DNA of 64,000 nt from the NCBI RefSeq assembly GCF_037042905.1, contig NC_087245.1, positions 868,001 to 932,000 of the forward strand, read 5' to 3'. This document shows positions 1 through 30,082 of this stretch, piece by piece. The stretch comes from Lytechinus pictus. Taxonomy: Eukaryota. Made by a program: the position numbers and the translations under genes. The first letter of the stretch is position 1; the number at the start of each line of letters is the position of its first letter. The notes below the pieces were generated by a model that saw nothing but the letters and a program-made list of their open reading frames with translations, had not been told where the DNA came from and did no database searches.

Positions 1-162
1 GTCTGAAGCCTTAAATGACCCGGCCTTTGACGACCCCATGGATATCTCTTTTATGACTGATGAACAACGGCACTCCAATTCTGTAAGGAAAGCTATTCAG
101 GTGGTCCGAAGAACGCAAGAGCTAGAAATCAGCAATCCTATGGAACTCATTTGGTTTAGAGG
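1..162 (+). CDS. ACOX1: ACOX1 exon 2 (5' part outside window)
   Basis: Frame from base 2 reads SEALNDPAFDDPMDISFMTDEQRHSNSVRKAIQVVRRTQELEISNPMELIWFR, similar to the ACOX1 N-terminus (LNDPDF...EIMWFK). GG|GTAAGT donor, phase 2. Confidence 0.9.
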
Positions 163-1544
163 GTAAGTGTGCTTGTGCTTACAGAGAGTGCAACCCAGCT
201 AGGAAAAAGAATGAAACCAAGAAAATGTTATTATATTGACACATATTTGTCAGACTTGGATCCTCTATCATTTTATAATCTAAATGTTGCCAATAGACTA
301 ATATTCCACTGGACGTCACATAAAAAACAACCAACCCGTAAACCCTTTACCCCCTTCCCCCCTTTTAAACTTTTTTGTTTTCCAATCCATACTGATTGTT
401 TAAAGTCAAGTGCTGGTGTTTTTCAAAAAATCTCTGTTTACTAACTAGTGTCCCAATTGGTACATGTAATTGGTCTAGAAATTGATTTGTATGGATAACC
501 CTTTTTTAAAAATCCTAGCCATGGTATGTTTTTCCTCACCAAGAAATATACCAGGTGAAGCGAATGGGTATCAGGCTGGCTAATACTGAACATTCAATAT
601 ACTGAGCATTGGAAGTGGTAGCTACATGTAAGTAAGGGTGATAGGAATAGATTATATCTAGATACATGTACATGTAGATGGCAATATTTGTATGAATACT
701 GTACCTACTAAAACATGACAAATTTTTAATTCACCTCCATGAGTCTCATTTCATAAAGAATTAACACAACAAATTAATAATTCCAATTAAACATGAGTAC
801 TATTAGCCAATCAAATTGAATTGGCTTTAAACTTTTATTGCAAATTCGTTAAAACAACAAGTTTAATGACAAAGGGCCCCTGATCTTCTTGGCTCAGAAG
901 TATGATAGTGCTGAGGTACATGTAAAGTATTGTACCAAAAGTCAGCTACCCCCTAATAAGTGCTTTGTGTACATGTATTGATCAAAATTATTCTCAAACA
1001 ACTCTATGATATGTACATGCATCAGTCAATGAAAATCTAACTAATTTGCACCTGTAGATGTCCAGTAGTGTAGTCGTCTGGGTTCAGTAACAGAAAACAT
1101 TGTGCAACATGAGATATTTGATCGGTCTAGAACTCTGTGTACATGTGGCCAGGCGACTAACAATGTCTTCTGCCTCTTCACATCACTTTTTTATGCTTCT
1201 AAAGTTCTAGTCCCAAACTTATAGGATGTTTCTCCAGGAAGTGCTAAAATTTGACCCTTCAAGGCTTCAACCCTACAATGTTGATGGTATACTACACTGT
1301 ATGCTGAATTTGTGCCCCTGGTAGTGTTTAAATCGTGTCCTTTCATAGTTTTTATTCAATTGATTTCATTCAGGTTACTTGAGTTTTTCTTCCTTGAAAA
1401 TGAAATCACTTTTAGCACTCGCTGCATGTGGTACCAGCAGCATGTGTATCTTGCCCCCCCCCCCCTCCCTCCTTTGATACTCCACTCTGAACTTAAATTT
1501 ACTAAGCTTTGTGTGAATAAGATTTTGTTGTTTTTCCAATGAAG

Positions 1545-1705
1545 GGCTACAAACCCATTAGAGGTTCCATCACTGAGCCTCCATACATCTATGTTCATGA
1601 CCACCATTATCAACCAGATGACTCTAGAACAGAGGTCACAATGGGAATCTGCAGCCAAGAAATTTGAATTGATTGGGACATACGCTCAGACTGAGCTGGG
1701 ACATG
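1545..1705 (+). CDS. ACOX1: ACOX1 alternative exon 3, copy A (161 nt)
   Basis: AAG acceptor; ATNPLEVPSLSLHTSMFMTTIINQMTLEQRSQWESAAKKFELIGTYAQTELGH; G|GTACAT donor; phase 2 in, phase 1 out. Confidence 0.9.
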
Positions 1706-2591
1706 GTACATATCAGAATAACAAGATTATCTCTAGACGTTCATGCAGAAAACTGATATTTCATAAGCAGGGGCGGATCCAGGGTTTACCTAGGGGGAAG
1801 CAATTTGAAAAATATGACAAGCAAAATATAAAAAAGAGAAGGTTATCGACAGTCATGGAGGACATTTCCCCCATGTAAAATATTTTGACAAGGCCGCCAA
1901 AATGGGTCACCCCCCCCCCTTGCCCCGTGCCTTGGATCCGTGCCTGGTGATTAGCAAGCATGTATCTATAGAACATTGTTATTTATCATGCCTGTAGACT
2001 AGATTAATATTCAAACCTATTGCCTTTGCTGTGCATTTTATTACACCACTACATGTGTAGTATCTTTTCACCAGTACTCATGCTCTTCATACATGTACAT
2101 GTACCTGTGTTTTGAGTCCATCTGTGCATTTGTTTTTTTAAGTCCTTGTTCTTGTGAGGTTTGGTAAAGTGATATCATAATCATGCATGTATGGATGCTC
2201 AGGTGTGCATCTTTGATGTCTCTATCAACACCCCCTTTTGAAGCCAACAAATGAGCCATGAAGAGACAGTGTCTAGTGTTGAAGTTGTTTGTTTTATAGA
2301 TAAACAACAAATCCCTGTATTTAATAAAAATACATAAGTATCATAAGTATTGTTACGAGTGCAAATGTAAATGATACAATGCAATATTCACATCATCAAC
2401 TATCACCTGATATGTCGACAAAGTGAAGTTAAGTTTCATATGCAATCAAACCTAATGTTTGCTACAATTGATAATGCTAATGCGAGTTATAATTTAATTG
2501 CTACATGTAGGTACCATATTCAAAACAGTCCAAAACTTGGCTATGCCATCACGAACGTACGTATAGCGCCCAGACATCTGTCGGCTGCTAT

Positions 2592-4063
2592 CACTGGCGT
2601 AAATCCGTGTTGATGGGTGGGGGGGATGACTGAAATATTTTGGCATTTTTTTTGCAATCATGTTTTTAGATATGCAAGGAATTGCCATTGATATGTCCAC
2701 AGTGGCGTACCGTGGGTCACGGCATTGGGGGGGCACCAGCAAAAATTTTGAATCACTGAGTGAGTGCGCTAGTGAGCGCGCTCAGTTGCCAGTTATACTG
2801 AGTACCTAATAGAGACATTTTAAGGACGATGTCATTAAACTGATATGTATCTCACTGATCAAATAATGCGAGCGCGAAGCGCGAGCTGAAATTTTTTTAT
2901 ATTCACACCTAAAAAGGGACATTATAGTCAAATTTGTGTAATCATGATAGGTACATGTCTCGCTAAACAATGCGAGCGCGAGCTGAAAAGTTAGATAATT
3001 CAGACCTGAAGTGGGGCATTCTAAGGTTTTTTTGTAAGAATTAACTAGGACCATACGTTTTTCATTAACCAAATGATGCGAGCGCGAAGCGCGAGCTGAA
3101 AATTTTTGATATTATTCAGATCAAAAGGGACATTTCAAGGACCGATTTTAGGAATTTATGAAAAGCAGACATATCTCACCAATCCACTAATCACGGACAG
3201 GAAATGTTTCATATATACGAAGACCTTAACATGGGGCAATCACCTTTTGAGTCGTGAAAAAGAAGCATATGTCACTACATAAAACAATGATAACTCAAGT
3301 GCTAGGAAATATATTTGGTTTATATTGACTTGAAAACGGGATGTTTTAGTACAACAGGATTATATATCACGTTAAACAGACAATGCGAGCACCAGGAACA
3401 ATGAAGACGTAGGCCCTGGGCAAATTATGTTTCATAAAGTTATGATAAATATGTTTCTTATGTAATGTAACATAACATAATTATAATATAATATAACATT
3501 ATAATGAATAATATTTTCGTCTTTCCCACTACGTTTCTCTTCCTTTCTCTCTCTTTTCTCCTTTTCCCCTTTCCGTTTTTTTTGGGTCAGCCGATGGGGG
3601 GGGGGGGGGATGTGCCCCCCATGCCCCCCGTAGTTACGCCACTGTATGTCCATATGGCAAATACCCCTCCAATATTATTATATTTTTTACCCCATGATGG
3701 TTTAATGGTTTTATTAGAGATTACATTTAAAAAAAATTGACATTCCATCTTAATCCCTTTCCAAAGACCCCAACATTGATGAATTGGAAGAAACGGGGGT
3801 TTCTCTTCAATGTTATAATAAGGACATAAGTATTTCGTTTGGAAATGGTGAACTGGCTCTTTATTTGCATTTTATGATTCAATAATATTGTTTTATTTGT
3901 TAAGCGGTATTTAGGAAGAATTTTCACCAATAAAACAATTATCTCTTGTGATTTTTTTTTCATTTCTTTCGTAAAAAGTGGGGGGGATGTTTGTACAGGC
4001 CATCCCCCCCTCGAAAAGTGGGGGGGATATATCCCCCCATCCCCCCCGGGATTTACGCCAGTG
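2592..4063. mobile_element. hAT-like non-autonomous element (outer)
   Basis: TIRs CACTGGCGTAAATCC / GGATTTACGCCAGTG; perfect 8-bp TSD GCTGCTAT (2584-2591 and 4064-4071). Confidence 0.85.
2700..3644. mobile_element. hAT-like non-autonomous element nested in the previous one
   Basis: TIRs CAGTGGCGTA / TACGCCACTG; perfect 8-bp TSD TATGTCCA; internal GCGAGCGCGAAGCGCGAGC repeats. Confidence 0.85.
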
Positions 4064-4867
4064 GCTGCTATTACTGATATGCCAATGAACGTATAGCGTG
4101 CGGTGTTGCCCGACGCGTCACCAAAAACAAATAGCATCGATATTCATGCATTTCTCTAACAATATACATGTACACTATAGTTCCATTTTAAAACAAAAAC
4201 ATAACAATTAATAATTCTGCGGAACTGAACAAATATAACCGTGGTGAATCAAGGAAATCTACAATTTCATTAGCTCGTCATAAAGCAATTATTTCCATTA
4301 ATTCATATTTAAGAAGAAATAAATAGTTATGGTTCAATTCCAATGGTAATTCACTAAAATATTCAATTTAACTAATCCGCATCTATAGTATCCGTAAAAA
4401 GGGTAGGTTGTCACTGCACATCCATAGTACATTGTTAATGATGTTAAGTTTCTCAATAAAGTATTTGATTGCCAGTTCAGCAGTACATGTACATTATACA
4501 TGTACAGTACACATCAACGAAAAACTCTTGAATGCAGTGCATTATATACTTGGTATGAAAAGATTGAAAATTTGTGGCCAAAAAATGGCATGTAGCTTAA
4601 TAGAGCAAAAAAGTAACTCCTGATTTCAGTCAGCAAAAAGGGTCAGGTAAGGTTCCTCTTAATAATGTTATGCAAAGTTAGCTACAATTCCAGTTGAAGC
4701 CTTGCCTATATATGTGCATTCACTGTATTGCACAAGTTTGACTAAAAACTTTTTTTTTATTTGAGCAAATACATTTATTAGAGCTCGATGGGTTTATCTG
4801 AGATTATATTTGTGAAAGTAATTGTTGATGTTTTTACCCACTCTCCCTCATATTTGGTTGGGCACAG

Positions 4868-5028
4868 TTCTGTTCATCGTAATGAGGAGATCTCTTTAGG
4901 CCTTCATGCTTCAATGTTTCTACATTCTGTAACAACTCAGATGACAGAGGAACAGAAGATGTACTGGCTAAAGGCAACCAAATGCTATACTCTCTTAGGA
5001 ACATACGCCCAGACTGAACTTGGACATG
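4868..5028 (+). CDS. ACOX1: ACOX1 alternative exon 3, copy B (161 nt)
   Basis: CAG acceptor; SVHRNEEISLGLHASMFLHSVTTQMTEEQKMYWLKATKCYTLLGTYAQTELGH; G|GTACAC donor; same length and phases as copy A. Confidence 0.88.
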
Positions 5029-6528
5029 GTACACACTGCATATTATCTACAGCTTTCTCCTTTCACGCCATCTTTCATCCCCTCTTCCCCCTCCTCACTT
5101 CAAAATTTAATTGAATCTTGCTGCTGCACCATCATGCTTTCTAATGTACATATTTACATATATTCATATTCAAAGTGGATGTTCATTTATTGTTTTACCA
5201 CCCCCCCATCATACTGAATTGATTGCATTTATAATTCATAATTCTACATTGATGATTTTCTCATATCCATAAATGTATACTATCATCCCATTCATTCCCC
5301 CTTCCTCTTGAGGAGAATGTAAGAAACTGGAAACTTTACCCATGAAAGATTTTCCTTTCTAATATAGTGCTCAAGAATACATGTAAAACAGGACATCAAC
5401 TCTTTCTGTATTCATGTAGCAACAATGAAAATATCTGAGTGATTTTCAATGACAATTTTAATTTGCTACTGTTCCTGTCATCTGATTTGTTGTGGGAAAA
5501 TTGACCAATGAAAATCAGTGAATCATATAAATGATATCCAGAATGCATTGTTGTGAGGCCAGTATTCGCAGAGTCTAAGTGAAGTATTAAGGAGCATTCA
5601 TTTTGTACAAGGGATTACAACAAAATTGTGGATTGAACCATCTGTGCATGCGTGAACTCTGAAGTTTCGTCTGTCCTCCGTCTGTCAGCGGTGCGTTGAA
5701 AATAACGATAAGACAATGGGTTTTCAATCACCTGATACATTTGCGTCAACGTCAGTATGCCCTGTCCTTAAAATCATAAAAATTTATTTGCAGGATGGGA
5801 ACACTGTAGCACCCAACAACACAAGGTATAGGTTTCAACCATTGAAGATGCATCCATCATCCAAGATGAAAATGTCTTTTTATAAAGAGAACTTGAGAGG
5901 ACTGGCTGGTGCATGTGGACCTGACTAATTCTAATTGTTGGGGATTCTAGAACAGAGTGACTGTTTTTTTTGTCTGTTGAGTCTTATAACATTATTCATG
6001 ATGATTATATCTCATTCATCTGGGAAAAAAGCCTCTTCAGTCTGCAGTTCACAGGACATGAACTTTCAGCTTTTTGATCTTCAAGGACAAAGTGACCAGT
6101 GGCCCATTGCAGAAATATCAAACACAAATCCCAAATGCAATCTGTCAATAAAGTTGTGTATGATTTCAACTCTTTCTGCTATGGGCTGCAGGGCACCACT
6201 GCATAAAATAAATCTTTGCCATCCAGTGCCACGTTAACTTTTATAGTAAACATTCACAAAAGCCAATCAGAATCCAGGATTCTTTCAAAGTTAAAATTGA
6301 GATGGCAAAGGCATTATGTAACTTATGCAGCGGGGCCAAGCAGTGAGTCATCATCCTTCTCCACAATGAAAGATGATATTGCAAATATTTTTTAAATGTA
6401 GGCTTCATTGCAGCTGTCCAACTGATGATTCCCTCATTCGTAAAAAGAGATCGTAGTTGCCAGCAACCATCTTCTGTTTTAAAAGCTAAACCTCCTATCC
6501 CATGCTTCTCTGTGTCTCCTTTCTACAG

Positions 6529-6689
6529 GGCTGTACATAAGGCAGAAGAACCAGCCCTTGCCCTCCACTCCACCATGTTCTCACATGCAATCCTCTCTCA
6601 AATGAGTGATGATCAGCATGAAAAATGGCTCAATGCTGCCTTCAACTTCGTCCTTCTCGGAACCTATGCCCAGACAGAGTTAGGCCACG
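6529..6689 (+). CDS. ACOX1: ACOX1 alternative exon 3, copy C (161 nt)
   Basis: Long pyrimidine tract and CAG acceptor; AVHKAEEPALALHSTMFSHAILSQMSDDQHEKWLNAAFNFVLLGTYAQTELGH; G|GTACAA donor; same length and phases. Confidence 0.9.
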
Positions 6690-8029
6690 GTACAAAGCTT
6701 TCCAACATCTTGTCTTATTGCATAGAACTTAACCTCTGATCCACTGATCATAATAAAGCTATCGATGGTAACTAAAACAGAGAGACCCTGACACTCGTGT
6801 GTTGAACATGACACTTAAATACTAAATACCCACAAATCCCATGGAGCTGCAGTTCAGCTGTCACATAAATTGAGTGGATTAAACCCTTGACTTGCATAGG
6901 TCATTGGTTTGATTTATAGACAGCATTATATTTGATCCTTTGGCAGTGCATACATCTACAATTGACTCTCCATACACAGGAGAGAACCAAATACCTTTTC
7001 AGTGTGGGTAAATTCAGGGAATGAACACCGTCTACATTGTGTACAGCTGAATTAATTGACTTGGGTCATATTCAAATAGTGCTTTGTAATAAGCTCTTCT
7101 ATCCTGAAAAATTTGGATTAATATTTGCAGTTGCAATGGGTGCTACTATTGTTGTCATAGTTACCATCGATAGTAAGTTTTATGCAGCAGGCCATGATAT
7201 TTGTTTGGGGTCACATTCTGTTCTTTCATTTCTTTTCTTTTATTCTTTATGGGTGAGTCAGAAAACTTTACATCTCAACAATTTCAAATTAATTAAAAAG
7301 TATAAAGCATAAAATTGTTATATATTTCCTTTAAGAGTATTTATCACCCACATTTATCTAATAACATTTTTAATGTGTTTACACTTTGATAGTCAGGAGG
7401 TATTTTTTGCGTCAAAGTAAGGCGTCACTGCAATGAATTCCTGTTTTAAAATGAGTTGGAGTAAACTTTATTCCAAATTACTTTTCAATAAGAAATTATG
7501 AGAATCAATACTGAATAGAGCATCTTAAATTTTTCATGCTAAAATGTAGGGAATCTGACAATGAATTTTACTATACTTGTTGTTTTCATGATACATTGCA
7601 ACTCGTGTAGGATTATGGCTTCATCGATGTTTGTATTTATTCAGTGCATTCATAATTTACATTTACACTTATAAAATTTGACATCACTGCAAATGATACC
7701 TCCTGATTATCCAGTCAAACACATTTACCACACAAAAATGGTATGAGATTATTTGTTTAGGACATATGTAGGTACGTGTTCATTACAATGACTTTCTTTA
7801 AAATGGCCAGGGTTATTAGACGTAAAATTTTTCTGATGTAAATTGTTTTTGTGACTCACTCGGTAGATACATTTGTTTTACTAATGATCGTTTGGTTTGT
7901 ACTGTTGCACTCTGCCACTATCCCCCCCCCCCCCCCCTTCTGTCCTGATTGTGGTGTATCTGTTCATGTTTCATGAAGTGAAACCTTTCTTGGGTTGAAT
8001 AATAAGTAATGGTTGGGCAGTACATTATA

Positions 8030-8844
8030 CAGTGCGTCCCAGAAAAAACGAAACCGAGATTAAACAATAATTTATCATAACTTCTTCACAAATACAATAG
8101 ACAAATGACCTACCATTTTAAAGCTCAGAATCTCCTCTTTTAGCTGATATCACTTAGATTATTCCTCATTCTCGCATGAGTGAGCAAAAACAATTTGAAG
8201 AAAGGATACCAAAAACTCATTTGGCAGGGGGTATCTGAATTTCAAAAAGAAAATCACATGCCTAAAAAGTTCAATATCTGCTCTTTTATTTGATACCTTA
8301 ATCACAAAAAATGGTCAAGAAGTAAAAAAGTTATGGTCCCTCGAAACAATGCTTGTATTTCCATAATTTCATTAAATAACGTGTTTTCACCGGTTTCCCA
8401 CAGAAGCTATCGCATGGTTAACAAAAGACTTAATGCATGGCTGATCGTCAACAAAATGGAGCGTCGAGTGAGTTTGAACGCTAGCCTGTAAAACCTCTTC
8501 ATTTTATGAAATTATTGAAATTCAAGCCTTATTTCAAATAACCAGAACTTATTTTTTGACCATTTTCTGTAATTAAGGTATCAAATTAAAGAGCAGATAT
8601 TGAACTTTTTAAAAATGTGGTTTTCTTTTTGAAACCCAGACACAGCCCGCCAAATGACTTTTTGGTATCCCCTCTTCAAATTGTTTTTGCTCACTCATGC
8701 GTGAATGAGAAATAATCTAAGTAATTCCAAATGAAAGAGGAGATTCTGAGCTTTAAAATGGTAGGTCATTTGTCTATTGTATTTATGATTAAGTTATGAT
8801 AAATCATCGATAAATCTCGGTTTCGTTTTTTGTGGGACGCACTG
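8030..8844. mobile_element. Tc1/mariner-like MITE
   Basis: TA-flanked TIRs starting CAGTGCGTCCCA; the inverted repeat extends roughly 300 bp. Confidence 0.88.
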
Positions 8845-9599
8845 TATATCTCATTCTCAGCATTTTGGCTGGTGGTGTTTTGTATGAACTTATTTTCTCA
8901 GACTTTACAATTATTTTGACCATGAAGTCTGAGATCAAGTTTTCGTAACAAAATCACATTTACATATAATATCTTTGCTTTTGGCAGTTCTGCTTAAAAA
9001 GATAATTATGATTTTATTTTGTGATAAACTTGTGACAGATATTTAATTTTGTAATTTGTGTGTTTCATATAAATTGACCCGTGCAAGTTGCACCCTTTTG
9101 TGACATCACTCACACGCATTAATCTTGAGAGATTGGTCGGGGTCAGTACTTTACACCATGTATTGATTACAATGTTTCATTTTCAAAGGGATTACAAAGG
9201 AGCTTGTAGTTCTCCTTATTATTGATCCATTTTATCCCCTGCATTTGGGATTCATCGTTCAGTCTAATATTTCTTTTGTGTTTCAATTATTACTCGCAGC
9301 CATAGGCGGCGGTCCTGTCCCCCCCCCCCCCCCCAAATTTTTTTTGTTTTTTGTATAACTTTTTTTTTTTTGCTTGTAAAAAAATGTTGTTGTCCCCCCT
9401 GAAATTTTGGTTGATAACCTTTTTTTTTTTTTTTTTTTTTTTTTTGCTTGTCAAATTTTGTACCTGTGTCCATCCCAAAATTTCAAGTGGACAGGTGGAC
9501 CCTCCCCTAAATTTTTTGGCTTCCGCCGCCAATGCTCGCAGTTGAATCCCCTGTACATAATATTGCTAGTCCCTAGTATTGCTATATGAACCAGAATGT

Positions 9600-9860
9600 G
9601 TGGAGTGTTGTGGCCCAGTGGAATAGTCTCCGGACTTTAAAACAGAGGGCCGTGGGTTCAAATCCCAGCCATTACGTAATTTCCTTTGGCAAGAAATTTA
9701 TCCACATTATGCTGCACTTGACCCAGATGAGGTGAATGGGTACCCAGTAGGATTTATTCCTTGAACGCTTTAGCGCCTATTAATATGGCGAAATAATATG
9801 GTACCAAGTATCGAAGCGCAGTTGAGTATATGCACATAGTAACTGCGCTATATATGGACA
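9600..9860 (+). mobile_element. tRNA-derived SINE
   Basis: A-box-like TGGCCCAGTGG and B-box GGTTCAAATCC, then a body shared with the copy at 54150-54426 and a (TTA)n tail. Confidence 0.8.
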
Positions 9861-9943
9861 TATTATAATTATTATTATTATTATTATTATTATTATCATT
9901 AATAATAATAATAATAATGATTATTATTATTATTATATTATTA

Positions 9944-10022
<79 letters not shown>
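9860..10022. repeat. (TTA)n/(TAA)n microsatellite, expanded SINE tail
   Basis: Read directly. Confidence 0.95.
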
Positions 10023-10023
<1 letters not shown>

Positions 10024-10191
10024 GGAATCATGTACAGTTTAATTCTTCAAAAAAAGACATACATAAAGCATTTTCCTGAACGAACATGCCTCCCATGATT
10101 ACAGACTTTTTACAGTAACATATGCATGCAGGTATCACACTTAATGATGAGTACACATATAAAGGTAGTACATTAATTTTAGTTTACTTAA

Positions 10192-10775
10192 AGGAGAATG
10201 AAAATCTTGGAGCAAGTTAGCTTTTGTGAAAGCAGAAAAATCAAAGAATAACATCAACAAAAGTTTGAGTAAAATAGGACTAGCAATAGAAGAGTTATGA
10301 GCATTTGAATGTCGAGATCACTAATGCTATGGAGATCCTCCCATTGGCAATGCGACCAAGATCTATGATGTCACAGATGAACAACTCTCCCCATTTGGAC
10401 GCTGAAAATATACCCCAAAACATCTCTTTTTGCTCATTCTAATCATATAACAAACGATTCATCAATGATATAATGTTGTGAAACCTCCGTACTTGTCCTC
10501 TTATAAAGAGAACACCTCACCTTGTGATAGACTCTATAAAAGTGAGAATATAAGTGAAATAAGTACTAAAGTAATGAGGGAGTTGTACGTGTGTGACATC
10601 ACAGATCTTGGTCGCATTGCCAATGGGAGGATCTACATGGCATTAGTGATCTCAATATTAAAATGCTCATAACTTTCTTATTATTCATTCAATCTTCCTC
10701 AAACTTTCAACAATATGTTTCTTTGATTTTTCTCTTTGATATGGATTCAGCTGGTTTCAAGGGTTTCATTCTCCT
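10192..10775. mobile_element. TTAA-targeting MITE (Kolobok/T2-like), copy 1
   Basis: TTAA|AGGAGAATGAAA ... TTTCATTCTCCT|TTAA; internal inverted repeats; near-identical copy at 30366. Confidence 0.88.
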
Positions 10776-13215
10776 TTAATTTGTGGGCACACTGCAGTCT
10801 ATAAGCCTATCACAAGCTTATCTCTATCATCAAACAAACTTGCTTGATTTTGTTGACAGAGCAATGTTCACTGGATTGTTATTAAAGAAATTCATGTACA
10901 TGCAATGAAGATTTGTCAATTGTTGCATAAAAAAGCTTTATTTCTTGTGAGCAGAGATCATTTTCGCATCAGTCCAGTCCCTAGTTCCCAAATTTGATGC
11001 AAGGTCCTTAAATAGGCCTAATGCAAATTATGCTGTGTGTAAAATTTTCAGCTAAATTTAGAACTGGCACTCGATAGAGTTGATTATTCCTCAGTCCCTG
11101 AATAGCAGTATGTGAGCGGATAATATTGTAATATGGTGATACAATTCAACTGTTCTGTTTAGACCTAGCTCTGTTAATATTTCCCTTGCTAAAGTTGTCA
11201 GTCAGTCATGCATCTATCCAATAATACAAGTCTTTATGTACATCACAGGTCATATTTAAGACTACAATATTTAGCTTACATGTAGGTTTGACACACATAT
11301 GTATTATAAACCCAATGCAATGCTGCTGAATCATTTTCTAAGGGGGCGTGGCTAATCATAAAATGATGGCTATTTACACAGAGGAGAAAGTCCAATGTCA
11401 GCATGGTAATGATCCATAATACAATTAAGTTGTGTACACAGTATATACTACATAGAATATCACAGCTTACACACATTTTTATACATGGTGTTGAGTCTAC
11501 ATGTGTATGGTAGTAACTATTTGGAGAAATTCTACATGTCTTTGGTTATATTCAAGTTCAATATTTAATTTGAATGCCATCCAAATGACAATCATAGAAA
11601 TATTGTACGAAGTTTACCTTATAATTAACTTTTGATATGTCAATTTACTTTCAATTCTGATATTAAAGACTGAAGTGTTTAAAAACATGGATTTTACTGT
11701 ACTGAAAATTGATTCAAATTTGCCACAGGTAGAGGTGGCCACAGAGGATTATCTATTGTTCCTAGGGGTGCTTTGACAATGGCCAGCACCCCCCCCCCCC
11801 CCCCGTAACAATAGAATAATCCTCCATGGAGAGGGCCCTGATTTCATACCTTTTGGTTCTTTTTACGCTCACTTAATATGAGAAAGTGCAAACTTTTGAA
11901 ATGAAAACCTTAGATTTAAAACAAGAAAGACATGTATATTACAAGAACTGACTTGGATTTACATAAATCATGTTTAAAGTATTCCTTACACTGGAACTGG
12001 GTATTATTACATATAGTAAGAGCAATTGCTATTGAAAATCTGCATTTATCGCAATTTATCAGGATGTTCTGAACTGATTCCATGCAGAACTGTAAAAATC
12101 CTCCAATGCTTTCTGTTGTGTCACTGTTTGGCTATCATTAATTCACTCTACAGTTGCATCAGTGACGGATGTAGGTCCAAAGGAGCCCAAGCTTTCTTTT
12201 TTAAAAAGTTTTGCACATTTATGACTTTTCCCATCATTTTTTTAACAGCCCACGTTCCTCCCCCCTCCCTGACCCCACCCAGGCTCATTACTGCAGTCAC
12301 ACCCCTCAATTGCACCCCCCCCCTCCGGCCTCAACGGTGGATCCGCCACTGATATGTGTAAGTGTTGTAATTCAACATCAGCTTTAAATACATCAATCAC
12401 ACTTGTATTTTTAAACCAATCGGATACATACATGTACATTTGGGCTCTATTTTTGTTATTTTGTGTGTGTGCAATGCATTGAAAAAACTGCTATCTTCCC
12501 TACATACATGTATATCCATTCATAATTTGAATTGTCTGTATTGTTCAGGCTTTTCACTCTGTCTACATAAATATACATGTAACTTTTCATATAAAGCACT
12601 TCATTTTCACCAATACATCAAACTGTAATATTTCCTCAATTAACCCTTTCCTACTCTATTAATGATCATACCATGTGTATTGCACTATTGCTGTGCTATT
12701 TGTGCCAGTTACTAACTTCAATCTTTCATCTTCAAAGTATTATACTAATATTGATAACCGTTTTTATTTAAAAACAAAAATCAATACGTTGAACAGTTAG
12801 AAGCAGATTTTTAAAAATTTATTTTAATATTTGTTTTCCTTTTTTTTACTTTTAGTATGAAGCTACATGTAGCTAGTAAGCATTGTAAGCTGATTATGTA
12901 ATTAATGATTGCATAGAAATTATCAGGCACCAATAAAGGAAAATTTTATTTATTTTGGAACCCCCCCCCCCCTTCAAAAGTTTAATGACCAGAGCTAATC
13001 ATTCTTTGAGTATTAAGCATAATTATTCTTTACTTCTATCCATTTAAAAAATGGACAAAAACTGCAAAGCTGTTATTTAGATTGTTAAACATGGTAAGGG
13101 TTCATTTATTTGTTGATTTTGCACTCTAGTAATACATATCATTATTTAAACTGATCAACTCTTGCTGGTATTTTCACTGTATTCAATATATCATTCTCTT
13201 AATACTTTGCACCAG

Positions 13216-13323
13216 GAACCTTTTTGCGTGGACTTGAAACAACTGCTACATATGACCCAAGAACTCAAGAGTTTGAGATACATTCACCCACTCTGACTTC
13301 AATGAAATGGTGGCCTGGAAATT
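13216..13323 (+). CDS. ACOX1: ACOX1 exon 4 (108 nt)
   Basis: (G)[38 protein letters not shown] and GTAAGT boundaries; acyl-CoA oxidase KWWPG motif. Confidence 0.95.
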
Positions 13324-17068: not shown

Positions 17069-17188
17069 TGGGTAAGACTGTCACCCATGCTATTGTAGCT
17101 GCTCAGCTGTACACTAAAGGACATTGTATGGGAGTTCATATGTTCATGGTTCCTCTACGCAGTCTAGAGACACATCTACCTCACCCCG
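17069..17188 (+). CDS. ACOX1: ACOX1 exon 5 (120 nt)
   Basis: (L)[42 protein letters not shown] and GTAAGC boundaries. Confidence 0.95.
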
Positions 17189-18104: not shown

Positions 18105-18220
18105 GTGTTGAATTGGGTGACATCGGACCAAAGTTTGGCTATAACAACATTGATAATGGCTTTCTGCGATTTAACCACTATCGCATTCCAAGAGAAAACA
18201 TGTGCATGAGACATTCTCAG
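18105..18220 (+). CDS. ACOX1: ACOX1 exon 6 (116 nt)
   Basis: (G)[44 protein letters not shown] and DNG motifs; CAG and GTATTT boundaries. Confidence 0.95.
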
Positions 18221-18780: not shown

Positions 18781-18950
18781 GTCATGCCAGATGGTACATA
18801 CGTTCCGCCTCCTCACAAGAAGGTTAGCTATGGTAGCATGTTGCCGATTCGCAGCGGCATTGTGGGAAACACAGGTTGGGCCCTGGCAAAGGGCTGTATT
18901 ATAGCAACAAGATACAGCGTTGTAAGGAGACAGTCTGAACTAATTCCTGG
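18781..18950 (+). CDS. ACOX1: ACOX1 exon 7 (170 nt)
   Basis: VMPDGTYVPPPHKKVSYGSMLPIRSGIVGNTGWALAKGCIIATRYSVVRRQSELIP; CAG and GTAAGG boundaries. Confidence 0.95.
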
Positions 18951-20147: not shown

Positions 20148-20310
20148 AACCAAAGAAGCAAAGATCCTTGATTACCAGAGCCAGCAATTGAAGATCATTC
20201 CCAACATTGCTACATCCTTTGCCTTCATCTTGACTGGAAAGCAGATGATGAAGACATATTTTGATAGCCTTGCTGAGATGAATGAGGGAAACTTTAGCTC
20301 CCTGCCTGAG
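20148..20310 (+). CDS. ACOX1: ACOX1 exon 8 (163 nt)
   Basis: TKEAKILDYQSQQLKIIPNIATSFAFILTGKQMMKTYFDSLAEMNEGNFSSLPE; TAG and GTGGGT boundaries. Confidence 0.95.
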
Positions 20311-22763: not shown

Positions 22764-22954
22764 CTCCATGCTACCTCAGCGGGACTGAAAGCATTCACAT
22801 CAGCTGTTGTTGCCAGCAGTCTAGAGGAGCTTAGGATGTCTTGTGGAGGTCATGGATACTCTAAGGCTAGTGGTTTCCCAGAACTGTATACCACTGCAGT
22901 CCCAGCTACTACCTATGAAGGAGAAAACACTGTCATGTTTCTACAAACAGCCAG
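22764..22954 (+). CDS. ACOX1: ACOX1 exon 9 (191 nt), contains the catalytic glutamate motif
   Basis: [70 protein letters not shown] and TYEGEN motifs; CAG and GTGATT boundaries. Confidence 0.96.
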
Positions 22955-24807: not shown

Positions 24808-24969
24808 GTACCTGATGAAGGTAGCCAGACAGGTAGGATCAGGAAATAAACTGGTTGGTTGTGCTGCATACCTTCAATCAAACTTATCACCTCGATGCTT
24901 GGCTAAGAGACAGACTGATTTCCTCAGACAGGATATCTTGGTAGATGCCTACAAACATAGGGCTAAGAG
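24808..24969 (+). CDS. ACOX1: ACOX1 exon 10 (162 nt)
   Basis: YLMKVARQVGSGNKLVGCAAYLQSNLSPRCLAKRQTDFLRQDILVDAYKHRAK; TAG and GTATGA boundaries; phase 2/2. Confidence 0.92.
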
Positions 24970-25976: not shown

Positions 25977-26082
25977 TGTTGTGATGTTAGCAGCAAAGAG
26001 GATGGGTGAAGAAATCAAGAAGGGTCACTCTCAACCCATCGCATGGAACAACTGCCACATGTATCTTATAAAGGCTGCAATG
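25977..26082 (+). CDS. ACOX1: ACOX1 exon 11 (106 nt)
   Basis: VVMLAAKRMGEEIKKGHSQPIAWNNCHMYLIKAAM; AWN motif; CAG and GTAAAT boundaries. Confidence 0.92.
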
Positions 26083-26533: not shown

Positions 26534-26680
26534 GCCCACTGTCACTTGTACTGTGTGGAGAGCTTCTTTGATGGAGTAAATAGTACTGATGCTTCACAAC
26601 CTGCAGTGGATGCTCTCATGGCTTTGTGTCAGCTCTATGCCATCTTTGGGATCAGCCAAAACAAAGGAGATCTGCTCCAG
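26534..26680 (+). CDS. ACOX1: ACOX1 exon 12 (147 nt)
   Basis: AHCHLYCVESFFDGVNSTDASQPAVDALMALCQLYAIFGISQNKGDLLQ; TAG and GTATGG boundaries. Confidence 0.93.
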
Positions 26681-27455: not shown

Positions 27456-29044
27456 TTTTCTTTGTTTTGGTTTGATATGGTTTCAGGATGGTTATATGAT
27501 TGGTGAGCAGCTAGATATGTTAGAGCGTCAGCTGATAGACCTACTAGCAATCATCAGACCTATTGCTGTAACTCTAGTTGATTTCTATGATATCTAGTAG
27601 TTTTCTTTGTTTTGTTTTGATATGGTTTCAGGATGGTTATATGAATGGTGAGCAGCTAGATATTTTAGAGCGTCAGCTGATAGACCTACTAGCAATCATC
27701 AGACCTATTGCTGTAACTATAGTTGATTTCTATGATATCTAGTAGTTTTCTTTGTTTTGTTTTGATATGGTTTCAGGATGGTTATATGAATGGTGAGCAG
27801 CTAGATATTTTAGAGCGTCAGCTGATAGACCTACTAGCAATCATCAGACCTATTGCTGTAACTATAGTTGATTTCTATGATATCTAGTAGTTTTCTTTGT
27901 TTTGTTTTGATATGGTTTCAGGATGGTTATATGAATGGTGAGCAGCTAGATATTTTAGAGCGTCAGCTGATAGACCTACTAGCAATCATCAGACCTATTG
28001 CTGTAACTATAGTTGATTTCTATGATATCTAGTAGTTTTCTTTGTTTTGTTTTGATATGGTTTCAGGATGGTTATATGAATGGTGAGCAGCTAGATATTT
28101 TAGAGCGTCAGCTGATAGACCTACTAGCAATCATCAGACCTATTGCTGTAACTATAGTTGATTTCTATGATATCTAGTAGTTTTCTTTGTTTTGTTTTGA
28201 TATGGTTTCAGGATGGTTATATGAATGGTGAGCAGCTAGATATGTTAGAGCGTCAGCTGATAGACCTACTAGCAATCATCAGACCTATTGCTGTAACTAT
28301 AGTTGATTTCTATGATATCTAGTAGTTTTCTTTGTTTTGTTTTGATATGGTTTCAGGATGGTTATATGAATGGTGAGCAGCTAGATATGTTAGAGCGTCA
28401 GCTGATAGACCTACTAGCAATCATCAGACCTATTGCTGTAACTATAGTTGATTTCTATGATATCTAGTAGTTTTCTTTGTTTTGTTTTGATATGGTTTCA
28501 GGATGGTTATATGAATGGTGAGCAGCTAGATATTTTAGAGCGTCAGCTGATAGACCTACTAGCAATCATCAGACCTATTGCTGTAACTATAGTTGATTTC
28601 TATGATATCTAGTAGTTTTCTTTGTTTTGTTTTGATATGGTTTCAGGATGGTTATATGAATGGTGAGCAGCTAGATATTTTAGAGCGTCAGCTGATAGAC
28701 CTACTAGCAATCATCAGACCTATTGCTGTAACTATAGTTGATTTCTATGATATCTAGTAGTTTTCTTTGTTTTGTTTTGATATGGTTTCAGGATGGTTAT
28801 ATGAATGGTGAGCAGCTAGATATTTTAGAGCGTCAGCTGATAGACCTACTAGCAATCATCAGACCTATTGCTGTAACTATAGTTGATTTCTATGATATCT
28901 AGTAGTTTTCTTTGTTTTGTTTTGATATGGTTTCAGGATGGTTATATGAATGGTGAGCAGCTAGATATTTTAGAGCGTCAGCTGATAGACCTACTAGCAA
29001 TCATCAGACCTATTGCTGTAACTCTGGTTGATTCTTATGATATC
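27456..29044 (+). repeat. 145-bp tandem array, 11 units, each made of the exon 13 acceptor plus the first 108 coding nt
   Basis: TTTCAG|GATGGT recurs at 27487, 27632 and so on to 28937 (10 x 145). Units are nearly identical; the first ten end in an in-frame TAG. Confidence 0.95.
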
Positions 29045-29143
29045 CCTGATAAGATGCTTTCTTCAGTGCTTGGACGCTATGATGGTAACGTCTATGAGAA
29101 CCTATATGAGTGGGCCAAGAAAGCTCCCCTCAACAAGAAAGAG
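28937..29143 (+). CDS. ACOX1: ACOX1 exon 13 (207 nt; the only complete copy)
   Basis: DGYMNGEQLDILERQLIDLLAIIRPIAVTLVDSYDIPDKMLSSVLGRYDGNVYENLYEWAKKAPLNKKE; CAG and GTAAGC boundaries. Confidence 0.93.
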
Positions 29144-30016: not shown

Positions 30017-30082
30017 GTTCCTGCTGCTTACAAGTACATTGGACCATTTCTTAAGGAGAACATAGCCAATTCAAAGCTCTGA
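30017..30082 (+). CDS. ACOX1: ACOX1 last coding exon 14, ending in PTS1 (SKL)
   Basis: CAG acceptor; VPAAYKYIGPFLKENIANSKL*; C-terminal SKL is the canonical peroxisomal targeting signal 1. Confidence 0.95.
   Translation, partial: VPAAYKYIGPFLKENIANSKL

Follow-up and report, generated by a model that had tools for sequence, protein, structure and literature searches.

A three-way mutually exclusive exon 3 cassette in the ACOX1 gene of the sea urchin Lytechinus pictus

Exon 3 of the Lytechinus pictus gene for peroxisomal acyl-CoA oxidase 1 (ACOX1) is a genuine three-way cassette of mutually exclusive exons, which we call copies A, B and C. The cassette counts as already known, since RefSeq annotates the three isoforms in two other sea urchins and a separate, independent echinoderm origin is in print in a passage of Martinez-Gomez et al. 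2021 (PMC8373072), and its value as a discovery is correspondingly small. We consider it very probable that the whole of the evidence is explained by a single echinoid ACOX1 gene in which exon 3 is present as three tandem, anciently diverged copies, with one copy picked per transcript. The analysis covered a 64-kb stretch of the L. pictus assembly (the window), which carries most of the gene (Table 1).

Table 1. Positions of ACOX1 exons in the window
Feature	Coordinates	Strand	Remarks
Exon 2	1..162	+	constitutive, upstream of cassette; cut by window start; donor G/GTAAGT; ends in phase 2
Exon 3 copy A	1545..1705	+	161 nt; donor GTACAT
Exon 3 copy B	4868..5028	+	161 nt; donor GTACAC
Exon 3 copy C	6529..6689	+	161 nt; donor GTACAA
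Exon 4	13216..13323	+	downstream acceptor common to all three copies; spliced mapping, RNA joints
Exon 5	17069-17188	+	constitutive; exact spliced mapping of P0126
Exon 6	18105-18220	+	constitutive; exact spliced mapping of P0126
Exon 7	18781-18950	+	constitutive; exact spliced mapping of P0126
Exon 8	20148-20310	+	constitutive; exact spliced mapping of P0126
Exon 9	22764-22954	+	constitutive; exact spliced mapping of P0126
Exon 10	24808-24969	+	constitutive; exact spliced mapping of P0126
Exon 11	25977-26082	+	constitutive; exact spliced mapping of P0126
Exon 12	26534-26680	+	constitutive; exact spliced mapping of P0126
Exon 13	28937-29143	+	constitutive; exact spliced mapping of P0126
Exon 14	30017-30082	+	constitutive; exact spliced mapping of P0126

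Anatomy of the cassette and identity of the gene

The original prediction described three open exons of 161 nt, flanked by AG and GT and sharing one phase, with an invariant ten-residue tail written in differing synonymous codons and an otherwise diverged peptide, and it was borne out on each of these points. A, B and C are neighboring homologous exons that match in length and phase and have intact splice sites (AG before and GT after, the latter within GTACA in 3/3), and frame +1 is the sole open frame in each. Exon 2 ends with two spare bases (GG) that any copy completes to a glycine codon with its first base, so the phases of the three copies are identical. Pairwise peptide identity is 51-53%, and 22 of the 53 columns are invariant, the last ten residues included. 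The codons of this tail differ at 4/30 bases between A and B, 9/30 between A and C and 8/30 between B and C, all synonymous, and synonymous sites are saturated when the exon is taken as a whole (NG86 dS undefined). Taken alone, the 53-residue peptides of A, B and C score 34.2, 31.6 and 33.0 bits against PF14749 (Acyl-CoA_ox_N), for which the gathering score is 25.

Searching the 64 kb by tblastn with the three peptides turned up no fourth copy (next best E value 0.15). The only matches to the peptides in the 812-Mb assembly are these three exons and, on another contig, the single equivalent exon of a second ACOX-like gene, an exon with the donor GTAAGT. The GTACA donor of the three cassette exons is found at 0/11 of the other donors of the ACOX1 gene.

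Judged by its protein sequence, the gene is ACOX1. Comparison with solved structures gave rat ACO-II (1IS2, E value 6.8e-198) and human isoform 2 (7Q84, E value 5.1e-195), and the C-terminus is SKL, the peroxisomal targeting signal PTS1, followed by a stop codon at 30082. In the alignment to rat ACO-II, the Glu of F-E-G-E-N stands opposite the Glu of Y-E-G-E-N in the query; we take rat Glu421 to be the catalytic Glu of ACOX1. The domain architecture of ACOX1 is present (Acyl-CoA_ox_N, Acyl-CoA_dh_M, ACOX_C_alpha1 and ACOX), with PF14749, PF22924 and PF01756 exceeding their cut-offs in the proteins P0124, P0125 and P0126, while PF02770 falls under its cut-off (26-27 bits vs 33.3) yet is among the precomputed domains. 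The exon 3 product corresponds to about residues 91-143 of rat ACO-II, in the N-terminal alpha domain.

The claim that only single inclusion is productive held when every combination of copies was placed between exons 2 and 4 in silico, with the reading frame staying open only for exactly one copy. Because each copy is 161 nt long, inclusion of none, two or three leads to early stop codons, which lie in exon 4 when all copies are skipped and inside the second copy when two or three are included. Triple inclusion (483 nt), considered as a way of restoring the frame, was ruled out by the same joining; it is single inclusion that bridges the phases. At the level of productive mRNA, exclusivity is thus enforced by the reading frame in silico, and aberrant transcripts would be degraded or useless.

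Splicing, annotation and conservation of the three copies

We examined contigs of one RNA run (X1) and raw stranded reads of three others (X12-X14, about 6% of each). Depth in run X1 is zero at the intron bins 901-1350, 5401-6300, 6751-7650 and 10801-11700, by which this run behaves as RNA, and the first mates of exon reads map exclusively to the minus strand, which fits a plus-strand gene. Among the junctions that the original prediction had named as a check, both joints of B, both joints of C and the joint from A to exon 4 were recovered, all of them GT..AG, but the joint from exon 2 to A (162 to 1545) is absent among the joints listed (15 of 29). In X12, X13 and X14, respectively, raw junction reads numbered 1, 0 and 3 for exon 2 to B (162 to 4868), 3, 6 and 1 for exon 2 to C (162 to 6529), 1, 0 and 2 for B to exon 4 (5028 to 13216), and 3, 4 and 3 for C to exon 4 (6689 to 13216). 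A contig of run X1 spans exon 2 at depth 65.3; contig depths in this run were 22.2 from exon 2 into B and 49.6 from exon 2 into C, and 16.3, 30.6 and 67.5 from A, B and C into exon 4. Two contigs carry the joint from B to exon 4, and one carries that from A, which was seen in the contigs of this run only. Joints between copies (A to B, A to C, B to C) do not occur among the 15 of 29 joints listed, at low depth. C is the most used copy in the RNA runs examined.

In the L. pictus RefSeq annotation, copy B is 100% identical to isoform X2 (P0125) and copy C to isoform X1 (P0126); C is used in 4/5 of the isoforms listed (X1-X5), B in 1/5 and A in 0/5. The annotation of this species therefore seems to lack exon A among the isoforms listed, in contrast to Lytechinus variegatus (XP_041481876.1, XP_041481884.1, XP_041481891.1) and Strongylocentrotus purpuratus (XP_783450.2, XP_011678808.1, XP_003724010.1), in which isoforms X1-X3, of 682 aa each, carry exons orthologous to A, B and C, one type apiece, matching the cassette of L. 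pictus. One automated model, P0001 (831 aa), fuses two copies, wrongly joining A, 170 nt of intron and C.

Conservation among relatives extends to all three copies, with 74-98% identity between orthologous copies vs 51-53% between paralogous ones. Three exon forms are present in Amphiura filiformis and Patiria miniata and two in Asterias, Acanthaster and Anneissia, and A-like and C-like forms occur in brittle stars and crinoids too. The cassette is old, and each of its types A, B and C has orthologs across the camarodont echinoids. The original prediction had named, as an outcome that would count against it, a single spliced copy whose neighbors are unconserved in relatives; what we found is that B and C are both spliced and that all three types exist in two other echinoids. 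The predicted three-way cassette thus stands on both joints of B and C and on the types annotated in those species, with A joined on its downstream side only.

Copy A is the least supported of the three in L. pictus, as it has no listed joint with exon 2, no listed junction reads in the raw-read runs X12-X14 (where depth over exon A amounts to about one read or less) and no place among the L. pictus isoforms listed. The cassette might accordingly be effectively two-way in this species, with A little used or decaying and its joint a product of splicing noise, a possibility also favored by sense-side depth in X12-X14 (0.10-0.25 in the exon A bin vs 1.3-2.0 in the C bin). We regard this as quite improbable. 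The contig depth of A into exon 4 is comparable with that of B (22-31) in run X1, and exon A is open, keeps its AG and GT and exceeds the Pfam threshold. It is also identical to the L. variegatus X2 exon at 52/53 residues and to that of S. purpuratus X2 at 39/53, conservation that is not expected of a decaying exon. A fusion such as that in P0001 could instead hint that the three copies are an artefact of assembly or annotation, through collapsed alleles or misassembled paralogous genes, but we count this idea as already refuted: copies with so little identity to one another are not alleles, RNA joins all of them to the same exon 4 and B and C to the same exon 2, and the same three types are annotated in two other species.

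Origin of the cassette

Exon 3 trees were built from 53 columns with 25-26 echinoderm copies and twelve vertebrate rows of exon form 3I. Patiria isoform X3, which is one residue shorter, was misaligned in the first tree (end branch length 10) and was excluded from later ones. All echinoderm copies formed one clade apart from vertebrate 3I and 3II (support 98/91; 99/89 in the first tree), and the echinoid A, B and C type clades had support of 95-99. Individual copies, which the original prediction had proposed to check for grouping with 3I or 3II, therefore do not do so in the tree. AU tests on these data did not reject a topology in which C-like copies and vertebrate 3II form a single clade (delta lnL 7.37, p 0.269), and an echinoid-only clade gave p 0.098 (53 columns). 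Met follows the conserved Gln in all echinoid copies, whereas this position is Ala in vertebrate 3II and Gly, Cys or Ser in vertebrate 3I. The contrast with QG and QA drawn in the original prediction is correct for mammals; QC predominates in the other vertebrate 3I rows, and one of the twelve rows has QS.

The proposed independent, convergent duplication agrees with the separate echinoderm clade, the shared clade is not rejected, and we regard a convergent origin as favored by the sequence data, not proven. The ACOX1 passage of Martinez-Gomez et al. 2021 (PMC8373072) states that equivalent exons exist in invertebrates and that the authors' own tree suggested separate origins of the event in chordates, echinoderms and molluscs; this passage states the echinoderm duplication and mentions neither three copies nor species names. 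Apart from this one sentence, a three-way echinoderm ACOX1 cassette did not come up in any paper that our literature searches returned.

Alternatively, the echinoderm copies and vertebrate 3I and 3II could descend from one early deuterostome duplication, making the cassette homologous, in which case its lineage-specific features (QM, and His after MF-x) would reflect gene conversion or subsequent co-evolution with the remainder of the protein. Besides the AU result, this would suit the V-H-R/K start common to the B type, the C type and vertebrate 3II, and the human exon, which is likewise 161 nt in the supplementary table of PMC8373072, where the human event is dated to Chordata. We nevertheless think shared ancestry unlikely, because the free trees unite all echinoderm copies, hemichordate and amphioxus proteins among the matches listed show a single form per gene, and the published tree suggested three separate origins; recent gene conversion is disfavored by the saturated synonymous sites and differing codons.

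We tentatively suggest, as a reading that has a real chance but falls short of probable, that a two-way A-like/C-like switch predates the split of the living echinoderm classes and was then enlarged independently in several, giving isoforms with distinct substrate ranges. The enlargements would be echinoid B from a C-like copy, brittle-star X2 and X3 from an A-like copy, and the third form in Patiria. Repeated duplication of the same 161-nt exon would then have occurred in at least three phyla because it is the evolvable chain-length module of ACOX1, and the three echinoid isoforms might act, for instance, on medium-chain or dicarboxylic substrates, on long-chain ones and on very-long-chain ones.

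Choice of copy, isoform function and comparison with known systems

Mutually exclusive clusters of the Dscam1 and 14-3-3zeta type contain many exons and use pairing between docking and selector RNA elements. The ACOX1 cassette resembles them in having more than two tandem homologous exons and a single choice. It differs from them in its long, repeat-filled introns and in that our search revealed no shared selector motif paired with a complementary docking site. The intron that separates C from exon 4 holds the longest inverted repeats of 163-13215, which are transposon-like or simple repeats, and no 9-12-mer is common to the three upstream flanks. Downstream of each copy lie one common 9-mer and one common palindromic motif, of which the 9-mer is not significantly enriched (count 7 vs 3.55 expected, with 7/100 shuffles reaching 7) and lacks a complement within the cassette. 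With no intronic docking or selector element found, the similarity of the donor sites is what points to a mechanism: choice would probably proceed by competition among three similar weak donors (G/GTACA) and their acceptors, under trans-acting control.

Whichever copy is chosen, the predicted products are three isoforms of equal length that would be identical but for some 53 residues in the N-terminal alpha domain; no structural paper on ACOX1 exon 3 was found in our literature search. Human ACOX1a and ACOX1b are reported to differ sharply in substrate range via this exon, with ACOX1a peaking at C10 and using dicarboxylyl-CoAs and ACOX1b peaking at C16 and alone using C24 (PMC11178532). By analogy, sea-urchin isoforms A, B and C probably differ in acyl-chain preference, and a lineage with an independently built three-way version would serve as a natural experiment in the tuning of peroxisomal beta-oxidation by a single gene.

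The closest known system is the vertebrate ACOX1 pair 3I/3II, which shares with the sea-urchin cassette the gene family, the exon, the position in the protein, the invariant tail and the property that only single inclusion is productive. Vertebrates, however, have two copies and the sea urchin three, and the sea-urchin copies cluster with one another and not with 3I or 3II.

Anatomy and reading frame of the three copies

Between exons 2 and 4 of ACOX1 lie three copies of exon 3, here called A, B and C. Translation of the window bears out the original prediction that these are three open 161-nt exons of the same phase, each flanked by AG upstream and GT downstream: the sole open frame in each is the continuation of exon 2, whose two spare terminal bases join the first base of any copy to encode Gly. 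Any two of the peptides have 27-28 of 53 residues in common in a gapless alignment, and each peptide by itself passes the Acyl-CoA_ox_N Pfam threshold. Their final ten residues are the same, encoded by codons differing at 4, 9 and 8 of 30 bases, all synonymously. The copies are old, since synonymous divergence has reached saturation across the exon. The 64-kb window contains no fourth copy, and in the 812-Mb assembly the sole match outside A, B and C was an exon from a second ACOX-like gene, located on a different contig (G000:C3:65839765-65839905, minus strand; locus L004). This exon is the single exon 3 equivalent within a 3-kb locus; its sequence looks more like the general animal form (MFIPT, KWLPLA), its donor is a canonical GTAAGT, and it was placed outside the echinoderm cassette clade.

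Exon 3 copies and splice joints in the window
Feature	Position	Length or intron ends	Reads X12/X13/X14	X1 contig depth	Basis
Exon 3 copy A	1545-1705	161 nt			translated window sequence
Exon 3 copy B	4868-5028	161 nt			translated window sequence
Exon 3 copy C	6529-6689	161 nt			translated window sequence
Exon 2 to B	162->4868	GT..AG	1/0/3	22.2	
Exon 2 to C	162->6529	GT..AG	3/6/1	49.6	
A to exon 4	1705->13216	GT..AG	none among joints listed	16.3 (one contig)	
B to exon 4	5028->13216	GT..AG	1/0/2	30.6 (two contigs)	
C to exon 4	6689->13216	GT..AG	3/4/3	67.5	

When exon 2 was joined in silico to exon 4 through each possible set of copies, the frame stayed open only with exactly one copy; zero copies led to a stop in exon 4, and two or three to a stop within the second copy. 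This confirms the prediction that single inclusion alone is productive. The same joins ruled out that three copies (483 nt) restore the frame, as bridging the phases takes one 161-nt exon.

The protein encoded by the window contains four ACOX Pfam domains, matches rat ACO-II (1IS2; E 6.8e-198) and conserves the Glu aligned to rat Glu421, which we take to be the catalytic base; in rat numbering, the variable exon covers residues about 91-143. RefSeq L. pictus isoforms X2 (P0125) and X1 (P0126) are 100% identical to the window over exons B and C, respectively, and P0126 maps exactly to exon 2, exon C and exons 4-14, with SKL and a stop at 30082. The 831-aa database protein P0001, an automated model, wrongly continues from exon A through 170 nt of intron and then joins exon C (window 1546-1875 and 6530-6688), a typical mis-annotation of mutually exclusive exons. 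The vertebrate exon 3 forms, 3I and 3II, are fused likewise in several database proteins. Elsewhere in the gene, 11 tandem units of 145 bp (99% identity) occupy 27456-29044, and each comprises an intron end with acceptor plus the opening ~108 nt of exon 13. Of these units, the RefSeq-like model takes the last only (28937-29143), and P0001 reads through two; the array is either a very recent expansion offering ten decoy acceptors or an assembly artefact.

Splicing and choice of copy

We sampled about 6% of each of three stranded raw-read RNA runs with the same species label (X12-X14), together with contigs of a fourth run of guessed kind (X1), which behaves as RNA because four repeat-free intron bins have zero depth and spliced joints are present. 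Copies B and C were joined to both exons 2 and 4, and A to exon 4 by one X1 contig spanning 1568-1704 plus 24 nt of exon 4. Neither the exon 2 to A joint (162->1545) nor any copy-to-copy joint was among the 15 of 29 joints listed. In the sampled runs, C is the main form, B the second, and A minor or sample-specific. The cassette is real and the original reading sound. RNA joints bear out the predicted three-way arrangement on both sides for B and C and on the exon 4 side for A, and two other echinoids have annotated isoforms of the A, B and C types.

All three donors read G|GTACA, and GTAC occurs in 0/11 other donors of the gene; three similar, weak donors would fit regulated competition. No docking/selector pairing was found in the cassette, where the long inverted repeats consist of simple repeats or transposon-like sequence. 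Upstream of the copies there was no common motif, and the one 9-mer common downstream of all three is not above chance and has no complement in the cassette.

Two positions differ between window (T) and RNA (G): 58 in exon 2 (13/13 reads in X14, plus X1 contigs) and 4983 in exon B (4/4 reads in X14, plus X1 contigs). Both probably reflect polymorphism among individuals. Within the intron that separates exon 3C from exon 4, 7650-10800 is rich in repeats, especially 10188-10779, with inverted repeats of 300-nt arms (8026-8325, 8549-8848) and 154-nt arms (10234-10387, 10580-10733). RNA-seq depth at 7650-10800 reaches about 290, very high on either strand, with hundreds of reads running off at 10187/10188 and 10779/10780; the pattern resembles that of a transcribed high-copy element of about 590 bp.

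Conservation and origin of the cassette

Residues 58-330 of P0001 matched 4850 ACOX proteins, 120 of which were listed; exon 3 segments were cut from cluster members of ten echinoderm and hemichordate matches. Isoforms X1, X2 and X3 of L. variegatus, and X3, X2 and X1 of S. purpuratus, carry exon types B, A and C, respectively, and each of the six is 682 aa long. Among the proteins listed, Amphiura filiformis and Patiria miniata have three exon 3 forms, Asterias, Acanthaster and Anneissia two, and Diadema a C-type protein only. Identity to the L. variegatus and S. purpuratus orthologues is 52/53 and 39/53 for A, 51/53 and 41/53 for B, and 49/53 and 43/53 for C (39/53 in Diadema), against 98%, 87% and, in Diadema, 82% for the rest of the protein. 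These identities show that selection preserves all three copies, if somewhat more loosely than the constitutive exons. Within each type, five positions that differ between types are fixed, and several more are nearly so. A shorter Amphiura filiformis protein (P0138, isoform X4) starts inside an exon 3-like segment unlike its X1-X3 forms, which hints at a fourth copy there.

The duplication had been proposed to be convergent with that of vertebrates. Two maximum-likelihood trees over 53 columns, one with 59 exon 3 peptides and one with 58 after removal of the misaligned Patiria X3, unite all echinoderm copies in a single clade (99/89 and 98/91) that excludes hemichordates, amphioxus, vertebrate 3II (98/94-96) and the vertebrate 3I groups. 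This separation favors convergence, but an AU test did not reject a single clade of C-like copies and vertebrate 3II, a group named after the tree was seen (p 0.269). From the peptide trees and tests, an independent echinoderm origin is the best-supported reading, though not secured. Within the echinoderms, A, B and C each form a clade (95-99), and B and C fall in a weak group (90/69-71) with crinoid, holothuroid, ophiuroid X1 and asteroid forms. Because the A clade, Amphiura X2/X3 and Anneissia X2 lie outside this group, the topology suggests that the A-like/C-like split predates the echinoderm classes; an echinoid-only clade was not rejected by the AU test (p 0.098).

Comparison with known ACOX1 exons

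Our literature search found no paper on a three-way echinoderm cassette. Both the cassette and the proposed independent origin are public already, and RefSeq holds three isoforms for S. purpuratus and L. variegatus. Excerpts of Martinez-Gomez et al. 2021 (PMC8373072) describe equivalent ACOX1 exons in several invertebrates, with a tree that suggested the duplication arose separately in chordates, echinoderms and molluscs; its supplementary table lists a 161-nt human exon and places the human event at Chordata. For the two human forms, excerpts of PMC11178532 report that ACOX1a peaks at C10 and handles dicarboxylyl-CoAs, and that ACOX1b peaks at C16 and is the sole user of C24.
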